This document shows, in pieces, positions 3,334 to 53,040 of a stretch of 64,000 nt of DNA. Numbering within the stretch: position 1 is the stretch's first letter; the number at the start of each line of letters is the position of its first letter. The stretch covers positions 27,044 to 91,043 of the forward strand of contig CALYBM010000077.1 in the NCBI GenBank assembly GCA_944412525.1. The letters are read 5' to 3'. This DNA comes from an uncultured Ruminococcus sp. (GTDB taxonomy: Bacteria > Bacillota > Clostridia > Oscillospirales > Acutalibacteraceae). The notes below the pieces were generated by a model. That model made no database searches and was not told the origin of the DNA. It was given only the letters and a program-made list of their open reading frames with translations. A program made the position numbers and the translations under genes.

Positions 3334-4110
3334 ATGAAAGTCAGAGAAAAAAGAATTTTCAGCGGAAAAACTTTTGAGCCGGAATTTTATTGCATAACAA
3401 AAGACGGCAGAAGATATTCTCGCGGAAAGAAGAAACAGTTAAGCCGCGAAGTACAAAAAAAGCTAAACGATAAAAATGCACGAAAACATCTGAGAAGGCT
3501 TCTTGATACTAATTTTGATGAATCCGGTTATTACTGCACATTTACATACAAGGACAATGAGATGCCTTCCTCTTATGAGAATTGTAAAAAGGATATAAAC
3601 AATTTTTTGAAAAGATTAAGGACCGCACGAAAGAGAGCTTGTCTTACGGAAGAACTAAAATATGTTTATGTCATTGAATTGAAGGTCAGTGCAAGAACCG
3701 GAATTGCACGCTTTCATTTTCACATTGTGATCAACGGCGGGCTTGCTCGTTCGGAAATAAAAAAAATTTGGGGAAAGGGAGATATAAAAAAAGTTGAAGA
3801 ATTACAGCCGGACGAACACGGCTTCAATCGTCTCGCAAATTATTTATGCAAAGATTGGAATAATCGCTCTTTGCCGGATAATCGCAAGCGTTACACACCG
3901 AGCAGAAATCTTAAGCAGCCGAGAACTGCTCCGCCGAAGGATGGAGTATTTTCCCCAAGATATCTTGAAAGAATTTGCAAGCAGCGGATTGACGACGCTG
4001 ACTTTTGGGAACGACGATATAAGGGCTATCGGTTTGTTGATGCAGAAGCAATTTATAACGATGACTACGGCACATGGAGCCTTTCGGTTTTTATGAGGAA
4101 GAAAGAATAG
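3334..4110 (+). CDS. HUH-superfamily rolling-circle Rep-like endonuclease
   Basis: Motif I YCTFTY, motif II RFHFHIVI, motif III LANYLCK. Start placed at ATG 3334 after GAAAGG. Confidence 0.7.
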   Translation: MKVREKRIFSGKTFEPEFYCITKDGRRYSRGKKKQLSREVQKKLNDKNARKHLRRLLDTNFDESGYYCTFTYKDNEMPSSYENCKKDINNFLKRLRTARKRACLTEELKYVYVIELKVSARTGIARFHFHIVINGGLARSEIKKIWGKGDIKKVEELQPDEHGFNRLANYLCKDWNNRSLPDNRKRYTPSRNLKQPRTAPPKDGVFSPRYLERICKQRIDDADFWERRYKGYRFVDAEAIYNDDYGTWSLSVFMRKKE

Positions 4111-4949: not shown

Positions 4950-5264
4950 TTGGCACAAATTAAAATTGCGGATATTAAAAGCAGCCTTATCGAGCAGCTT
5001 GAAAAAAAGGGAGCTGACATTGACTGCTACAAGGATCTCGTTGACGCATATATTTTTTACACAAAAATGGAGCGGAAAATGCAAGCCGATGTTCAGAAAA
5101 AAGGGCTTACATACGAATCAATTTCCTCAACCGGCAAGAACTATGTTAAAGATAATCCGTCTGTTAAAAATGCTGTTTATTATAACAAGCAGCGGCTTGC
5201 AATTTTAACACAAATGGGGCTTAATCTCAAGACGGTTGAAACAGAAACAGACGATGAATTGTAA
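4950..5264 (+). CDS. terS: Terminase small subunit (P27 family)
   Basis: Position; KDNPSVKNAVYYNKQRLAILTQMGL motif. Confidence 0.85.
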   Translation: MAQIKIADIKSSLIEQLEKKGADIDCYKDLVDAYIFYTKMERKMQADVQKKGLTYESISSTGKNYVKDNPSVKNAVYYNKQRLAILTQMGLNLKTVETETDDEL

Positions 5265-22563: not shown

Positions 22564-22770
22564 ATGAAAACAATTTTCACAAAGGAATGTTTAGTCCGTG
22601 CAGGAAGAACATTCTTGCAGACGGCGATAGGCTACATTGTAACTAATATATCAATGTCCTTGACGGATATTGATTTTACAAACGGAAATGTTTTGCTGAA
22701 TGCTTTAATAGGACTTGCGGTCTCGGCAATTTCCGCAGGCGCATCAGCAGTAATGAATATCAGAAAGTGA
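22564..22770 (+). CDS. Holin
   Basis: RAGRTFLQTAIG...AVSAISAGASAVMN, two TM helices, directly upstream of the amidase. Confidence 0.75.
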   Translation: MKTIFTKECLVRAGRTFLQTAIGYIVTNISMSLTDIDFTNGNVLLNALIGLAVSAISAGASAVMNIRK

Positions 22771-22782
22771 GGAATAAGTATT

Positions 22783-23583
22783 ATGGCTAAAAAAATTTAT
22801 TTAAGTCCTTCAAATCAGAACAGTAACACCTATGCAACAGGGAACACAAACGAAATGGAGCAATGCAATAGAATAGCTGATTATGCAAAGAAAGCACTTG
22901 AGCGTTGTGGTTTTTCTGTAAAGAAAGCCCCCAAGGGACAGAATATGAACACATCTATAAACGAGAGTAATAGCTGGGGCGCTGAATTGCACATTCCTAT
23001 TCATACCAATGCAGGCGGCGGCAAAGGCACAGAAGTATTCATTTACAGCAACAGCGGCGAAAACAAAAAAGCAGGAAATGCTATCTACAAAAGACTCGTA
23101 GAGGTGAACGCTACAAAAACAGCAAGATATATCGGCACATACCGCTACGGAGGTACACTTGCAGAAATTCAGAATACTACGGCTATCGCTGTTTATTGTG
23201 AGTGTGAATTCCACGATAACAAGACATACGCTAAATATATTATTGATAATGCTAAGAAATTCGGTGAAGCAATTTGCAAGGGCGTTTGCGATTACTACGG
23301 CGTAAAGTACAAGTCTGAAACAACATCCTCAAAGCCGGTTTTGGAAACGAGCGGTTATAAGAAAGGAATGAACACAGACGGCTCTTTTGCTCTGAAATGC
23401 CTTTTGATGATTGGAAAGGATGTAGGTGTCCTCACTCAAGGAGTTGATAAAAACGGTATTATCGGTGACGGTTCTGTTAAAGCGTTTAATCAGTGTCTTA
23501 AGAAGTGGGGTTATGCCGAGAACGGTATAGCCGGCGATAAGTTTATTGATAAGCTGACCGCAGAAATCAGAAAGAAGATTTGA
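22783..23583 (+). CDS. Endolysin, N-acetylmuramoyl-L-alanine amidase (Amidase_3) with a C-terminal PG-binding-like domain
   Basis: IYLSPSNQ, NEMEQC, HIPIHTNA, VYCECEFHD; C-terminal VDKNGIIGDGS..WGYAENGIAGDK. Confidence 0.88.
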   Translation: MAKKIYLSPSNQNSNTYATGNTNEMEQCNRIADYAKKALERCGFSVKKAPKGQNMNTSINESNSWGAELHIPIHTNAGGGKGTEVFIYSNSGENKKAGNAIYKRLVEVNATKTARYIGTYRYGGTLAEIQNTTAIAVYCECEFHDNKTYAKYIIDNAKKFGEAICKGVCDYYGVKYKSETTSSKPVLETSGYKKGMNTDGSFALKCLLMIGKDVGVLTQGVDKNGIIGDGSVKAFNQCLKKWGYAENGIAGDKFIDKLTAEIRKKI

Positions 23584-49791: not shown

Positions 49792-50034
49792 TTGAGTGAA
49801 CAAATGATTTTGGCGTTGCTGTCGTTTGCGGGAACCTTGCTTGGCTCTCTTGCAGGCGTGTGCGCGACTTCAAGACTTACAAACTACAGAATTGAACAGC
49901 TTGAAAAAAAGGTTGACAAGCACAACAATCTTGTAGAGCGTGTATATCGAATCGAACAGCACGAAGCGGTTATCGACAATAAACTGAAAACAGCCGATCA
50001 CCGCATTAAAGATCTCGAAAAAGAACAAATTTAA
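49792..50034 (+). CDS. Phage-type lysis-associated single-TM/coiled-coil protein
   Basis: MSEQMILALLSFAGTLLGS..LTNYRIEQLEKKVDKHNNLVER; RBS GGAGGTGA. Confidence 0.75.
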   Translation: MSEQMILALLSFAGTLLGSLAGVCATSRLTNYRIEQLEKKVDKHNNLVERVYRIEQHEAVIDNKLKTADHRIKDLEKEQI

Positions 50035-50092
50035 AGCAGTGCCATATTATGTTAGTGAGCACTGCCTAATAACGAAAGGATGCTTAAATTTT

Positions 50093-50329
50093 ATGAAAAT
50101 TTTAAATGTTACCTTTACAAAGGAATGTTTGTACCGTGCTTTGCGAACATTTTTGCAGACGGCAATAGGCTATATAATAGCTAATATATCTCTCTACGCA
50201 ACAGGCATTGATTTTGCCGACGGCGATGTCGTAAAAAATGCCCTGATAGGTTTGGCAGTTTCTGCATTTTCAGCAGGCTCGGCAGCAGTAATGAATATAA
50301 AAAAAGGAGACGACAAAAAAGATGGCTAA
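50093..50329 (+). CDS. Holin, homologue of prophage 22564-22770
   Basis: FTKECLYRALRTFLQTAIGY...NALIGLAVSAFSAGSAAVMNI. Confidence 0.78.
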   Translation: MKILNVTFTKECLYRALRTFLQTAIGYIIANISLYATGIDFADGDVVKNALIGLAVSAFSAGSAAVMNIKKGDDKKDG

Positions 50330-51110
50330 AAAAATATATCTAAGCCCCTCAACACAGAGCGGCAACACCTACGCCTCAGGCAATACCAATGAAATGGCAC
50401 AGTGCGAAAAAATCGCAGACGCCGCCGCTTCGGCACTCAAACGATGCGGATTCGAGGTTAAGGTCGGCAAGTCGGGCGATTCAATGCTTAATCGCTGTAA
50501 TGAATCAGACGCTTTTAAAGCGGATATTCATATGCCCATTCACACCAACGCCTACAACGGCAAGGTGACAGGCGGAACAAGAATTTTTTGTTACAGCTCG
50601 TCAGCAGCCAATACAGCACCCGCAAATGCCGTTTTAAAAACTCTCGGTGCAATATCACCTGGAACGGCTGACAGCGTATCCGTAAACGCAGGATTGTATG
50701 AGGTAAACAAGCCTAAAGCAATTACCGTATATGTAGAGTGCGAATTCCACGATACAAAGACAGGTGCAGATTGGATTATCAAAAATGTTAAAAACATCGG
50801 CGAAGCAATCTGCAAAGGACTTTGCAATCACTTTAAAGTTAAATATGTGTCAGGCACATCACCCAACACCTCGGCAGGTTCTTCTACGACAACCTCTTCG
50901 GCTTTCAAAAGCTATATAGTTAGAATCACCCCCTCAGACGGAGTGAATATCCGAAAAGGTCCGGGTACTGACTATGATATAGTCGGTGCAATAGAAAAAG
51001 GCGGTGCTTATACTATCGTTGAAGAAAAAGACGGCAAAGGTGCTTCAAAGTGGGGCAAGCTGAAAAGCGGTGCAGGCTGGATCGCTCTTGACTATACCGA
51101 AAAAATCTGA
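50322..51110 (+). CDS. Amidase_3 peptidoglycan hydrolase with C-terminal SH3b
   Basis: MAKKIYLSPS, HMPIHTNA, VYVECEFHD; VNIRKGPGTDY...WGKLKSGAGWIALDY. Confidence 0.9.
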   Translation: MAKKIYLSPSTQSGNTYASGNTNEMAQCEKIADAAASALKRCGFEVKVGKSGDSMLNRCNESDAFKADIHMPIHTNAYNGKVTGGTRIFCYSSSAANTAPANAVLKTLGAISPGTADSVSVNAGLYEVNKPKAITVYVECEFHDTKTGADWIIKNVKNIGEAICKGLCNHFKVKYVSGTSPNTSAGSSTTTSSAFKSYIVRITPSDGVNIRKGPGTDYDIVGAIEKGGAYTIVEEKDGKGASKWGKLKSGAGWIALDYTEKI

Positions 51111-51128: not shown

Positions 51129-51166
51129 TGAGTTTGCCCCGATTTTTAACTTGAGGGGCAAACTCA
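51129..51166. terminator. Hairpin terminator after the amidase (probably bidirectional)
   Basis: TGAGTTTGCCCC/GGGGCAAACTCA preceded by an A tract. Confidence 0.75.
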
Positions 51167-51238
51167 CCTTTAATTTATTAATAAAAAATAAAACAGGCAA
51201 TAATTTTACGCAAAATAAAACGCAAAATCATTACCCAA

Positions 51239-51264
51239 TTTCGTGAAATAAGTTATTTTTAGAA
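51239..51264 (+). repeat. IR-L: left 26-bp inverted repeat flanking the recombinase
   Basis: TTTCGTGAAATAAGTTATTTTTAGAA; 25/26 identical to the reverse complement of 52618-52643. Confidence 0.9.
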
Positions 51265-51292
51265 CAAGTAAGTTTTGTTAAACTTCGATATT

Positions 51293-51321
51293 ATAATACC
51301 AAATATGCCAATATGTGTCAA
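51293..51321 (-). promoter_or_regulatory. Outward-facing sigmaA promoter inside the IR-bounded segment
   Basis: Minus-strand TTGACA(51321-51316)-N17-TATTAT(51298-51293). Confidence 0.6.
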
Positions 51322-51451
51322 TATGTTTTTTAAAATTTTTTTAATTTTTTTTAAAATATAATTTAAATTCTTATATATTTGTTATTTTTAAGTCTTTAAC
51401 TGGTCATTTCTATGGTCTTTTCAGGACATAAAAATATGGGTCGGTGGTCAA

Positions 51452-52546
51452 ATGAGAACAAAACAGAATATTTATAAAAGAAAAGACGGAAGATGGGAGG
51501 GGAGGTACTTTAAAGAATATGACAGTAACGGAAAAATAAAATATTCTTCAGTTTATGCTAAATCATACACAGAAGTAAAAGAAAAGCTTAACAGTATAAA
51601 AGCCAACTCATTAAATATATCCACAAATGGTATTAAAACTGATTTTAAAGATGTGTGCAAAGAGTGGCTCGAATATAAAAAAAGTTCAATAAAAATATCT
51701 TCATATGCAAAATATAATTTTATTATTGAAAAGTACATTATCCCGTTTTTTAATAATTGCAAACTGTATGAGTTAAATAAAAATTCCTTAAACGAATTAA
51801 TAATAAAAAATAATAACCTTGCACAAAGCACCCAAAAAAATATTGCAACTGTATTTAAATCTATCATTTTGTTTGTAAATGACAAATACAACTTAAATTT
51901 AGAAATAACATCTTGTCAATTTAAAAAAGCTTATGCCGAAAATATGAAAGTATTGTCGGAATTTGAACAAGAAAAATTGGTAAGATATTTATTAAATAAT
52001 ATTAATTTGATAAATTTAGGTGTTTTAGTTTGTTTATTTACCGGATTACGAATAGGAGAAATTTGTGCTTTAAAATGGTCTGACATAGATTTAAAAAACA
52101 AAATCATTAAAGTATCTAAAACTATACAAAGAGTGCAGATAGTTGACGAGTATCATAATTCAAAAACAACAATTATTTCGCAATCTCCGAAATCAAACAA
52201 CTCAATAAGAGAAATACCGATGACAGATGATTTGATATCAATCATAAACAAAAATGTAAAGAATTTCAATAGCAACACATATTTCCTTACAGGAAATAAA
52301 CATTACATTGAACCCAGAAATCTTCAAAATAAATTTAAAAAAATTCTTGCCAATGCAAAAATAAATGATATAAATTTTCATGCTTTAAGGCATACATTCG
52401 CAACGAGAGCTATTGAAAACGGTATTGATGTAAAAAGCGTTAGTGAAATTCTCGGACATTCTAATGTAAGTATGACACTTCAAAAATATGTACACATATC
52501 TATGCAACAAAAATTAAAAGAGATTAACAAATTAAAGTTATTTTAA
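51452..52546 (+). CDS. Tyrosine recombinase (intact) with an N-terminal arm-binding-like domain
   Basis: NIYKRKDGRWEGRY; GLRIGE, FHALRH, LGHS, LQKYVH catalytic residues R-H-R-H-Y. Confidence 0.93.
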   Translation: MRTKQNIYKRKDGRWEGRYFKEYDSNGKIKYSSVYAKSYTEVKEKLNSIKANSLNISTNGIKTDFKDVCKEWLEYKKSSIKISSYAKYNFIIEKYIIPFFNNCKLYELNKNSLNELIIKNNNLAQSTQKNIATVFKSIILFVNDKYNLNLEITSCQFKKAYAENMKVLSEFEQEKLVRYLLNNINLINLGVLVCLFTGLRIGEICALKWSDIDLKNKIIKVSKTIQRVQIVDEYHNSKTTIISQSPKSNNSIREIPMTDDLISIINKNVKNFNSNTYFLTGNKHYIEPRNLQNKFKKILANAKINDINFHALRHTFATRAIENGIDVKSVSEILGHSNVSMTLQKYVHISMQQKLKEINKLKLF

Positions 52547-52617
52547 ATGTGTACTTGGTCAAAAAAATCGTAAAACAGAAGAAAAACTCGCATAAAATGC
52601 GAGTTTTTGTTTTGTTT

Positions 52618-52643
52618 TTCTAAAAGTAACTTATTTCACGAAA
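52618..52643 (-). repeat. IR-R: right 26-bp inverted repeat
   Basis: TTCTAAAAGTAACTTATTTCACGAAA, directly after the recombinase terminator AAAAACTCGCAT/ATGCGAGTTTTT. Confidence 0.9.
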
Positions 52644-52740
52644 ATAAAATTTTAAATTTAAGTTATTCAATAATGCTGTTTTAAGATATTGTATCCGAAT
52701 TCCCTTAATAATATTTAATTTGAGAAGCTCTATGGTGATG

Positions 52741-52762
52741 AAGTTATGTTAACAAATAACTT
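52741..52762. repeat. Palindromic AAGTTAT-N8-ATAACTT site
   Basis: AAGTTAT GTTAACAA ATAACTT: 7-bp arms with an 8-bp spacer, sharing the AAGTTAT core of IR-L. Confidence 0.65.
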
Positions 52763-52834
52763 TCGGTACAAAAGGTTTTCTTAAAACGGATAATGCAGTA
52801 AATTTAAAATAACAAACCAATAAATTTATTTTTC

Positions 52835-52867
52835 AGTTATTTTTAGTTAAAGTAGTTTTGTTAAACT
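52835..52867 (+). repeat. Site D: direct partial copy of IR-L and its inner flank
   Basis: AGTTATTTTTAG-N7-AGTTTTGTTAAACT versus AGTTATTTTTAG-N8-AGTTTTGTTAAACT at 51251-51284. Confidence 0.8.
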
Positions 52868-53005
52868 GAGGCGATAATGTGGAGAATCATTTGCACTAAA
52901 ATTCAACATATCTAAAATACAATATCACCACAATCTATACTACAATTAATCATTAATTTTGATACCACTGAAAATGCAGATAATTCGTCACAGATTTTGC
53001 TTACG

Positions 53006-53040
53006 GAAAACCAACGGAAACTTATCCGTTGGTTTTTTCG
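53006..53040. terminator. Bidirectional terminator at the 3' end of tcdA
   Basis: GAAAACCAACGGA/TCCGTTGGTTTTTT. Confidence 0.8.

Follow-up and report, generated by a model that had tools for sequence, protein, structure and literature searches.

The stretch analysed here (the window) comprises 64,000 nt of DNA from an uncultured Ruminococcus sp., and its segment at positions 51239-52643 is very probably a self-contained invertible cassette that carries its own recombinase, a tyrosine recombinase of the lambda/Tn1549 type. The segment is enclosed by two inverted copies of a recombination site, and its interior occurs in nature in either orientation at one and the same locus. The sites, a predicted outward promoter and a candidate arm motif are conserved throughout a family of related cassettes, and about one in ten of the sampled Clostridia species carries a close homologue of the recombinase. 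Within this family the window copy is an atypical member, and at its locus the two orientations are documented in nature with unusual directness.

The original prediction had described near-perfect 26-bp inverted repeats enclosing the recombinase gene, its upstream region and its terminator. This anatomy was confirmed and the arms were extended to 29 nt (51239-51267 and 52615-52643), which are 93% complementary and lie 1347 nt apart. A single T/C mismatch separates the 26-mer at 51239-51264 from the reverse complement of 52618-52643, and the chance expectation for such a repeat, estimated from 100 dinucleotide-preserving shuffles of the window with up to three mismatches, was 0.00 matches. In the left recombination site, IR-L (51239-51267, + strand), a centre of 5-7 nt (AAGTT) separates the outer half-site TCGTGAAAT from the inner half-site ATTTTTAGA, which is degenerate; the right site, IR-R (52615-52643, - strand), is its inverted copy. 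The intervening DNA comprises an AT-rich upstream region of 184 nt, one open reading frame (ORF) and a bidirectional intrinsic terminator, the last predicted by a terminator scan at the recombinase 3' end just inside IR-R (52582-52608, both strands). The G+C content is ~25% in the cassette and the ~400 nt to its right, compared with ~43% in the flanks. No att-like direct repeats were found at the cassette.

The arm sequence is unique to this locus. A 24-mer search allowing up to three mismatches found no second copy in the 1.99-Mb, 126-contig assembly, and a 17-mer of the arm, searched in the same assembly at the same tolerance, returned as further matches only chance matches with three mismatches. 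Additional targets acted on in trans were accordingly rejected, since the genome holds no further copy of the site.

Inversion was examined by comparing assemblies of the same locus, recognised by its amidase gene, cassette and ThiF gene. Close homologues of the recombinase (79-94% identical) occupy this locus in public metagenome contigs and in one further species of the genus. The comparison across related genomes that had been proposed with the original prediction recovered both orientations: 11 assemblies share that of the window (the window itself, L013, L015, L030, L118, L119, L122, L123 and L125-L127), and three independent metagenome contigs (L121, L120 and L124) carry a flipped interior. 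The breakpoints of the flipped relatives coincide with IR-L and IR-R. In L121, a 21-kb Logan contig whose recombinase is 79% identical to that of the window, both flanks align reversed and the interior directly, with switch points at window positions 51237/51267 and 52643. A recombinase protein identical to that of L121 occurs in the window orientation in L122, which derives from a different sample. In L120 and L124 the flipped junction connects the recombinase 3' end, the terminator and the repeat, in that order, to the amidase-side flank in reverse complement; the L124 flank matches that of L013 with 95.7% identity over 207 nt, and the L124 interior is 99% identical to L013. Two alleles were thus each recovered in both states, P0009 in L121 versus L122 and P0006 in L120 versus L118 and L119.

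Several features of these contigs bear on how the flipped state arose. Because the arms of the flipped-contig lineages share just 22-27 perfect bases, fewer than the 31-mers of the assembler, the flipped paths are supported by reads and are not a choice made by the assembler. The flank junctions are base-for-base alike in both orientations. A C/T difference in the inner half-site moves with the interior on inversion (L121 versus L122), which places the crossover in the site centre or outside it, as expected for a tyrosine recombinase. Together with the breakpoints in the repeats, the recovery of both orientations supports the original proposal of a 1.4-kb invertible cassette with its own invertase, rather than a phage remnant. 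Logan contigs of 1.4 kb that run from repeat to repeat (for example L014) were discarded as evidence of flipping, given that in that lineage a repeat of at least 30 perfect bases (k-1) breaks the assembly graph anyway, and a repeat scan of JGI metagenome contigs gave no match. Separately, the single arm mismatch (window positions 51256 and 52626) is polymorphic among copies of the locus, being T/T in L013, C/C in L015 and L118 and T/C in the window, which suggests exchange or conversion between the two sites.

The recombinase gene (51452-52546, + strand) encodes 364 aa with a predicted arm-binding N-terminal domain, a SAM-like core-binding domain and a catalytic domain. Pfam matches were obtained to Phage_integrase (8e-31) and Phage_int_SAM_3 (5e-10), and public records label all homologues 'site-specific integrase'. 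The closest solved relative is the Tn1549 integrase (6EMZ/6EN0; phmmer 4e-17, Foldseek 3e-12), followed by XerA, IntI4 and full-length lambda Int, the latter over ~380 aligned columns. An earlier statement that all catalytic residues are present proved correct on alignment to Tn1549 Int and 22 homologues, in which R200, K247, H310, R313, H336 and Y346 form a complete set in invariant columns. The gene is intact, and dN/dS values of 0.08-0.10 against orthologues, at dS of 0.35-2.6, indicate purifying selection.

In the AlphaFold model (pLDDT 82.5), three strands (residues 7-11, 14-23 and 29-36) and a helix (39-53) are followed by a flexible linker, the helical core-binding domain and the catalytic domain. 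As modelled, the enzyme has the layout of a heterobivalent integrase of the lambda/Tn1549 type and not that of FimB/E, Xer or RecV. The N-terminal domain itself has only a weak Pfam match, to AP2 (E 0.41). Residues N6, I7, R10, K11, D12, R14, W15, E16 and R18 are invariant among the 22 homologues, down to 41% identity, and these residues remain invariant despite core sites that differ among subfamilies.

The same architecture recurs around related recombinases. Our family set comprised 80 loci from contigs representing one genome per species, with recombinases 31-63% identical, in Lachnospiraceae, Oscillospiraceae, Ruminococcus, Faecalibacterium and Enterococcus. A search of related recombinases for flanking inverted repeats, suggested with the original prediction, found them at 56 of the 80 loci, against 6/394 mismatched controls in which the left side of one locus was paired with the right side of another. 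The left arm precedes the start codon by 180-260 nt and the right arm follows the stop codon by 60-100 nt, at a spacing of ~1.35-1.65 kb, with dyad core sites in inverted orientation. Internal dyads with the consensus TCGYARART-N5-inverted copy were present in 42/54 arms (score at least 7/9), compared with 9% of random windows; the window arm scores 6/9. Judged by sequence, the family arms therefore have the form of lox, FRT or att-core sites.

Within the genus, where the distribution is patchy (11/61 relatives), homologues 39-65% identical occur in other contexts and are bracketed by repeats of 22-33 nt that lie ~1.39 kb apart and differ in sequence. An even sample of Clostridia yielded a homologue (E <= 1e-50) in 32 of 295 high-quality species genomes, with repeats at 16 of the 29 loci examined. 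Reversed interiors with breakpoints at the repeats were also detected in three further species pairs, namely L075/L101 (supported by both flanks), L107/L112 and L091/L102.

The family cassettes also share a promoter and a characteristic arrangement of neighbours. A match of at least 10/12 to an outward promoter was found in 35/57 cassettes, ten of them perfect, versus 6/57 on the recombinase strand, and in most cases 20-45 nt separate the end of the -10 box from the left site. Flanking genes mostly read outward: the right neighbour is on the + strand in 39/50 loci and the left neighbour on the - strand in 32/52, giving doubly divergent flanks at 21/48 loci. The window copy has the inverted dyad sites, the outward promoter and the arm motif at both ends, as do most of the 80 + 29 loci surveyed, and lacks the outward-facing flank gene that most family members possess.

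Putative targets elsewhere in the family are varied. In Lachnospiraceae, Faecalibacterium and Ruminococcus (L075, L101, L103, L107, L112 and L150), the gene next to the cassette repeatedly encodes a large helicase with ResIII, Helicase_C and HA domains. Some genomes have this gene at the promoter end and their relatives have it at the opposite end, which in Faecalibacterium and Lachnospiraceae depends on the orientation of the cassette. On plasmid pRUMAL02 of R. albus 7 (L150), a perfect outward promoter faces such a helicase-type gene. The copy on the E. gilvus megaplasmid adjoins a WxL surface-protein cluster, and other possible targets are mixed, including XRE regulators, chemoreceptors, TnpB and an rRNA methyltransferase; no clear enrichment for surface proteins was apparent among the outward-facing neighbours. 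At L085 the cassette lies between two divergent paralogous genes for secreted proteins; a 159-nt inverted repeat (3576-3734 and 5034-5192) covers the 5' leader, the ribosome-binding site and the signal peptide or first ~40 codons of these genes and makes them identical in both. This copy is likely to act as a two-way toggle between protein variants.

Other family loci show closely related cassettes in different organisms or contexts. L039 (Clostridium sp. AF27-2AA) and L040 (Butyricicoccus pullicaecorum DSM 23266) have identical 25-nt repeats, 350-450 nt upstream of an outward gene for an Erm-type rRNA adenine dimethylase. Between the two organisms the flanks show 94-100% identity, which points to a recent horizontal transfer that took in the entire region. 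The cassettes L031, L032 and L033 (species G015, G007 and G001, respectively) are 87-88% identical and occupy three different contexts. Sequence shared among them continues for ~70 nt beyond the left repeat and for ~95 nt beyond the right one, where it reaches the ribosome-binding sites of three genes unrelated to one another; the unit that is portable therefore exceeds the segment from repeat to repeat.

A second type of conserved site lies inside the two ends. The motif [CG]GTCA[AGT][AT] occurs throughout the family on the + strand only, often as 11-nt tandem units of the type ATGGTCAAAA. Its density reaches 4.5 per kb at 40-55 nt before the start codon, where the opposite strand has 0.6 per kb, and 9.8 per kb on the + strand just after the stop codon, against 0.4 per kb on the - strand. 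Relative to a background of ~0.8 per kb in coding sequence and distal flanks, this corresponds to a 6- to 12-fold enrichment inside both ends. By motif match, the window contains candidate arm-type sites on the + strand at 51402-51453 (GGTCATTT at 51402, GGTCTTTT at 51414 and GGTCAAAT at 51446) and at 52557-52564 (GGTCAAAA, 11 nt past the stop codon). The copy at 51446 overlaps the start codon of the recombinase, so that these sites may also autoregulate the gene. We infer from their sequence and placement that the motif copies would be arm-type sites bound by the N-terminal domain of the recombinase, the upstream set being in addition autoregulatory.

The predicted outward promoter of the window copy (51293-51321, - strand) consists of TTGACA-N17-TATTAT with a TG extension and matches the consensus at 11/12 positions. 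It is located 25 nt inside IR-L, lies on the strand opposite to the recombinase and reads leftward through IR-L; it is kept in the group of 63% identity and in the L121/L122 lineage. Immediately beyond the left site, the terminator scan detected a terminator-like hairpin (51194-51237, - strand) that folds in the predicted RNA of the window orientation and could serve as a 'parking' terminator for this promoter, and at its position the L121/L122 lineage has a stronger hairpin followed by T7. Farther left, the predicted bidirectional terminator of the amidase gene (51129-51166, both strands), a G+C-rich hairpin GAGTTTGCCCC...GGGGCAAACTC with an A-tract before it and a T-tract after it, would insulate this side against leftward cassette transcripts; the hairpin is kept in L013, L015 and L118. 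On the right, an AT-rich non-coding flank (52644-53004, + strand), which would lie downstream of the outward promoter when the segment is flipped, is followed by a predicted bidirectional terminator common to the convergent ThiF/TcdA-like gene (53005-53038, both strands), a putative right insulator.

The neighbouring genes complete this picture. To the left, all on the + strand, lie ftsH, uvrA and a cassette of XhlA-like, holin-like and Amidase_3-SH3 genes; to the right, the convergent ThiF/TcdA-like gene is followed by DeoR, PfkB and a fructose PTS gene. The left neighbour on the + strand and the right neighbour on the - strand both point towards the segment, leaving no outward-facing gene at either side. 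With convergent neighbours and terminators on both sides, flipping would therefore alternate only short non-coding RNAs. Apart from the motif TTTTGTTAAA(A)C, which is kept in three diverged lineages, the right flank shows little conservation from one lineage to another, and Rfam returned only sub-threshold, terminator-like noise at the locus. Two candidate relics in this flank were considered and rejected: a 12-aa ORF with a Shine-Dalgarno sequence, as a remnant of cargo, is absent in relatives, and similarity to the conserved 95-nt leader found ahead of various cargo genes in the 63% group scores no higher than shuffles.

In the window orientation, the leftward RNA would measure ~50-160 nt and end at the hairpin 51237-51194 or at the amidase terminator. 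The flipped orientation would instead yield a structured rightward RNA of ~400-450 nt, running through the right flank to the terminator at 53005-53038. By hand alignment, 52835-52867 is a partial direct copy (30/34) of 51251-51284, which spans the inner half of IR-L and the promoter leader; possible interpretations of the copy are the remnant of a former cassette end, an accessory site and an RNA element. In the predicted flipped-state RNA, the leader pairs with 52835-52867 in a stem of ~30 bp that closes a domain of ~230 nt, and the minimum free energy of this RNA is -103.8, compared with -70.9 +/- 5.8 for shuffles. A similar pairing of leader and flank is predicted for the naturally flipped L121 lineage and was not the fold chosen for the L013 lineage. 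The flipped-state RNA may thus be closed by pairing of the promoter leader with the conserved flank motif. Either a cargo gene has been lost and the switch now idles, or the orientation-dependent RNA is itself the product.

The lysis-type genes beside the cassette (window 49792-51110) follow uvrA, and the order ftsH-uvrA-xhlA-holin-amidase also occurs in three further species of the genus, G012, G007 and G031, which lack the recombinase and in which other genes, such as DegV, follow the amidase gene. Since these genes follow uvrA in species without the recombinase, they are independent of the switch; from this gene order they look like a chromosomal cassette kept in several species and not part of the switch. 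A second stretch related to the holin/amidase region, 73% identical, is located ~28 kb upstream at window 22575-22880.

Taken together, these data are best explained by the following mechanism. The recombinase would bind the two inverted lox-like core sites at the ends of the segment and probably also the GGTCAAA-type arm sites inside both ends. Strand exchange in the central part of the core sites would then flip the 1.4-kb interior, including the recombinase gene. Through the arm sites inside both ends, a bivalent enzyme could bridge its own two core sites. Each flip would redirect a strong outward promoter from one flank to the other, so that in most family members it would turn outward flank genes on or off, or change over from one gene to another. 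In this scheme the recombinase is presumed to be the catalyst, inversion to be frequent within a population and the promoter to be active, and any phenotype is likewise presumed. We also advance, as a tentative combined proposal, that the cassette belongs to a widespread and unpublished class of portable phase-variation modules in which a heterobivalent integrase has been turned into an invertase and pairs its own two ends through arm-type sites inside the segment, in effect carrying out an attL x attR reaction in inverted orientation, and that this locus controls a phase-variable structured RNA of ~400-450 nt made only in the flipped state.

Known systems resemble the cassette in part. The cassette enzyme resembles Tn1549/Tn916 Int and lambda Int by its sequence and fold matches, its three-domain layout and its full catalytic set. 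Tn916 carries arm-type repeats inside both ends, where the cassette has its candidate arm repeats. Those integrases, however, join sites in direct orientation during integration and excision, whereas the cassette has two complete core sites in inverted orientation; its outcome in nature is inversion in place, and unlike Tn1549/Tn916 and lambda it has no Xis-like gene and no element cargo. The integron platform (intI, attI and Pc) likewise has a recombinase gene divergent from a promoter that reads out through the adjacent site, a likeness extended by IntI4 being among the fold matches. The cassette differs in that attC cassettes are absent, that the 3' end of the gene has another site in inverted orientation, which would make the entire platform flip, and that integrons have no counterpart of its predicted N-terminal arm-binding domain.

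The layout recalls the Salmonella H segment (hixL-hin-promoter-hixR, controlling fljBA), which contains its invertase within its own segment together with inverted sites of ~26 bp and an outward promoter, so that inversion links adjacent genes to the promoter or uncouples them (PMC5903667, PMC2784873). As in the H segment and in the Gin, Cin and Pin systems, the recombinase gene and an outward promoter, here predicted, are located inside the segment. Hin, however, is a serine recombinase that needs an enhancer bound by Fis, whereas the cassette enzyme is of the tyrosine integrase type with a predicted arm-binding domain; it is therefore not a member of the Hin family, or of the Gin, Cin and Pin group, despite the H-segment-like layout. 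The promoter is divergent from the recombinase gene in the cassette and downstream of it in the H segment, and this copy, unlike the H segment, has no target gene.

The RecV switches of C. difficile (cwpV, flgB, cmrRST and pdcB) and the FimB/FimE-fimS switch of E. coli likewise depend on a tyrosine recombinase that inverts a short segment between inverted repeats, and the sites of such enzymes consist of two inverted binding elements around a short spacer (PMC12282940). RecV and FimB/E are encoded outside small switches of 150-300 bp, and RecV acts on several sites in trans (PMC5903667, PMC2784873). In the cassette, by comparison, the gene lies inside a 1.4-kb segment, the genome contains no further copies of the site and the protein has an extra N-terminal domain, predicted to bind arm-type sites. 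The original prediction that the core resembles RecV-type repeats did not hold up: the RecV site pattern AWAGTWNCCNTTW-N6-WAANGGNWACTWT (PMC12282940) was matched nowhere in the window, even with three mismatches allowed, the likeness reduces to a 13-nt arm stretch that matches a single RecV half-site at 9/11 specified positions by hand comparison, and the protein is not Xer-like. A 2025 survey of gut invertons treated nearby invertases as lying outside their switches (PMC11892184). A full-text literature search found no published description of invertons that contain a tyrosine integrase, with subscription journals thinly covered, so that this absence is no proof; the family of such switches is apparently large and undescribed.

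Certain observations weigh against reading the segment as a working switch of this kind. Taken overall, the promoter scan yielded no more sites than shuffles did, and both the promoter and the terminators are predicted solely from consensus matches. The simple terminator rule detects a terminator inside IR-R in only 10/56 family loci, and a terminator is therefore not claimed as a family feature. The evidence for inversion comes wholly from comparisons between samples or species, and dependence on this particular recombinase is deduced from co-location and from the lack of other site copies, with the intact gene under purifying selection as indirect support. The family's usual logic also fails at this locus, where the flanks are doubly convergent, as in only 3/48 family loci, and the right flank of ~360 nt has no conserved ORF. 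These last two points, with the converging neighbours and the terminators that bound both flanks, are what a functionless orphan would show, that is, a segment that does invert but has lost its former cargo and persists as a neutral or selfish remnant without phenotype. The right flank evolves fast, as such a remnant might, and the 62%-identical cassette in G001, which also follows an xhlA-holin-amidase cassette, does have an outward lipoprotein gene. An orphan would, on the other hand, hardly account for the strong purifying selection on the recombinase across dS of 0.35-1.3, for sites, promoter and arm motifs that are all intact, for a flip as recent as that of L124, or for the retention of the flank motif and the predicted leader-flank stem in diverged lineages. 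We regard this explanation as possible but somewhat doubtful.

A different origin for the two orientations, excision and re-insertion of an IS-like element or of a minimal tyrosine transposon akin to Tn916/Tn1549, whose ends would be the repeats, appears improbable. The close relationship to the Tn1549 integrase, the arm-type repeats that recall Tn916, the patchy distribution in the genus and the ~88%-identical cassettes in three contexts (L031-L033) would all suit a mobile element. Each arm, however, is a complete dyad with an asymmetric centre, and the two are inverted, an arrangement that predicts inversion and not excision. Homology between contexts also runs 70-100 nt past the repeats, which are therefore not the element ends; each site type is single-copy per genome, and the conserved outward promoter has no role in transposition. 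Ordinary transposon ends with a target duplication, an outcome that the original prediction had named as refuting it, do not fit the repeats, as there is neither a duplication nor a variable coupling sequence and the junctions are identical in both orientations. No clean empty site lacking the segment from IR-L to IR-R was found in the relatives examined (G012, G007 and G031). Less credible still is a leftover phage or integrative and conjugative element integrase beside a lysis cassette, with the repeats as unrelated hairpins or terminator relics and the flipped contigs as assembly errors. The XhlA-like, holin-like and Amidase_3-SH3 genes immediately upstream, the low G+C content and the 'site-specific integrase' label of the homologues invite this interpretation, which is contradicted by the independence of the lysis cassette, by the same repeat architecture around homologues of 31-65% identity in dozens of species, by three independent flipped samples in which the perfect overlap of the arms is below the assembler word length, and by the lack of att-like direct repeats. 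A self-contained cassette inverted by its own integrase thus remains our preferred reading of the segment.

One of the main ways in which gut bacteria become phenotypically heterogeneous is through invertible promoters. Surveys based on reads usually seek short switches with an invertase outside; switches of 1.4 kb that contain an integrase are therefore easily annotated 'site-specific integrase' and mistaken for mobile-element remnants. The window copy is useful in this respect, as it presents one chromosomal locus in both states in nature and has no coding target, which isolates the switch for study. If the proposed interpretation is true, arm-site-assisted inversion would represent a new use of the heterobivalent integrase mechanism, and the many orthogonal pairs of site and enzyme would offer a toolbox for genetic switches in anaerobes. 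A sizeable share of the 'integrases' of Clostridia and enterococci would then be phase-variation switches, with targets that include HA-domain helicases, WxL surface clusters, chemoreceptors, regulators and, in some relatives, a resistance gene.

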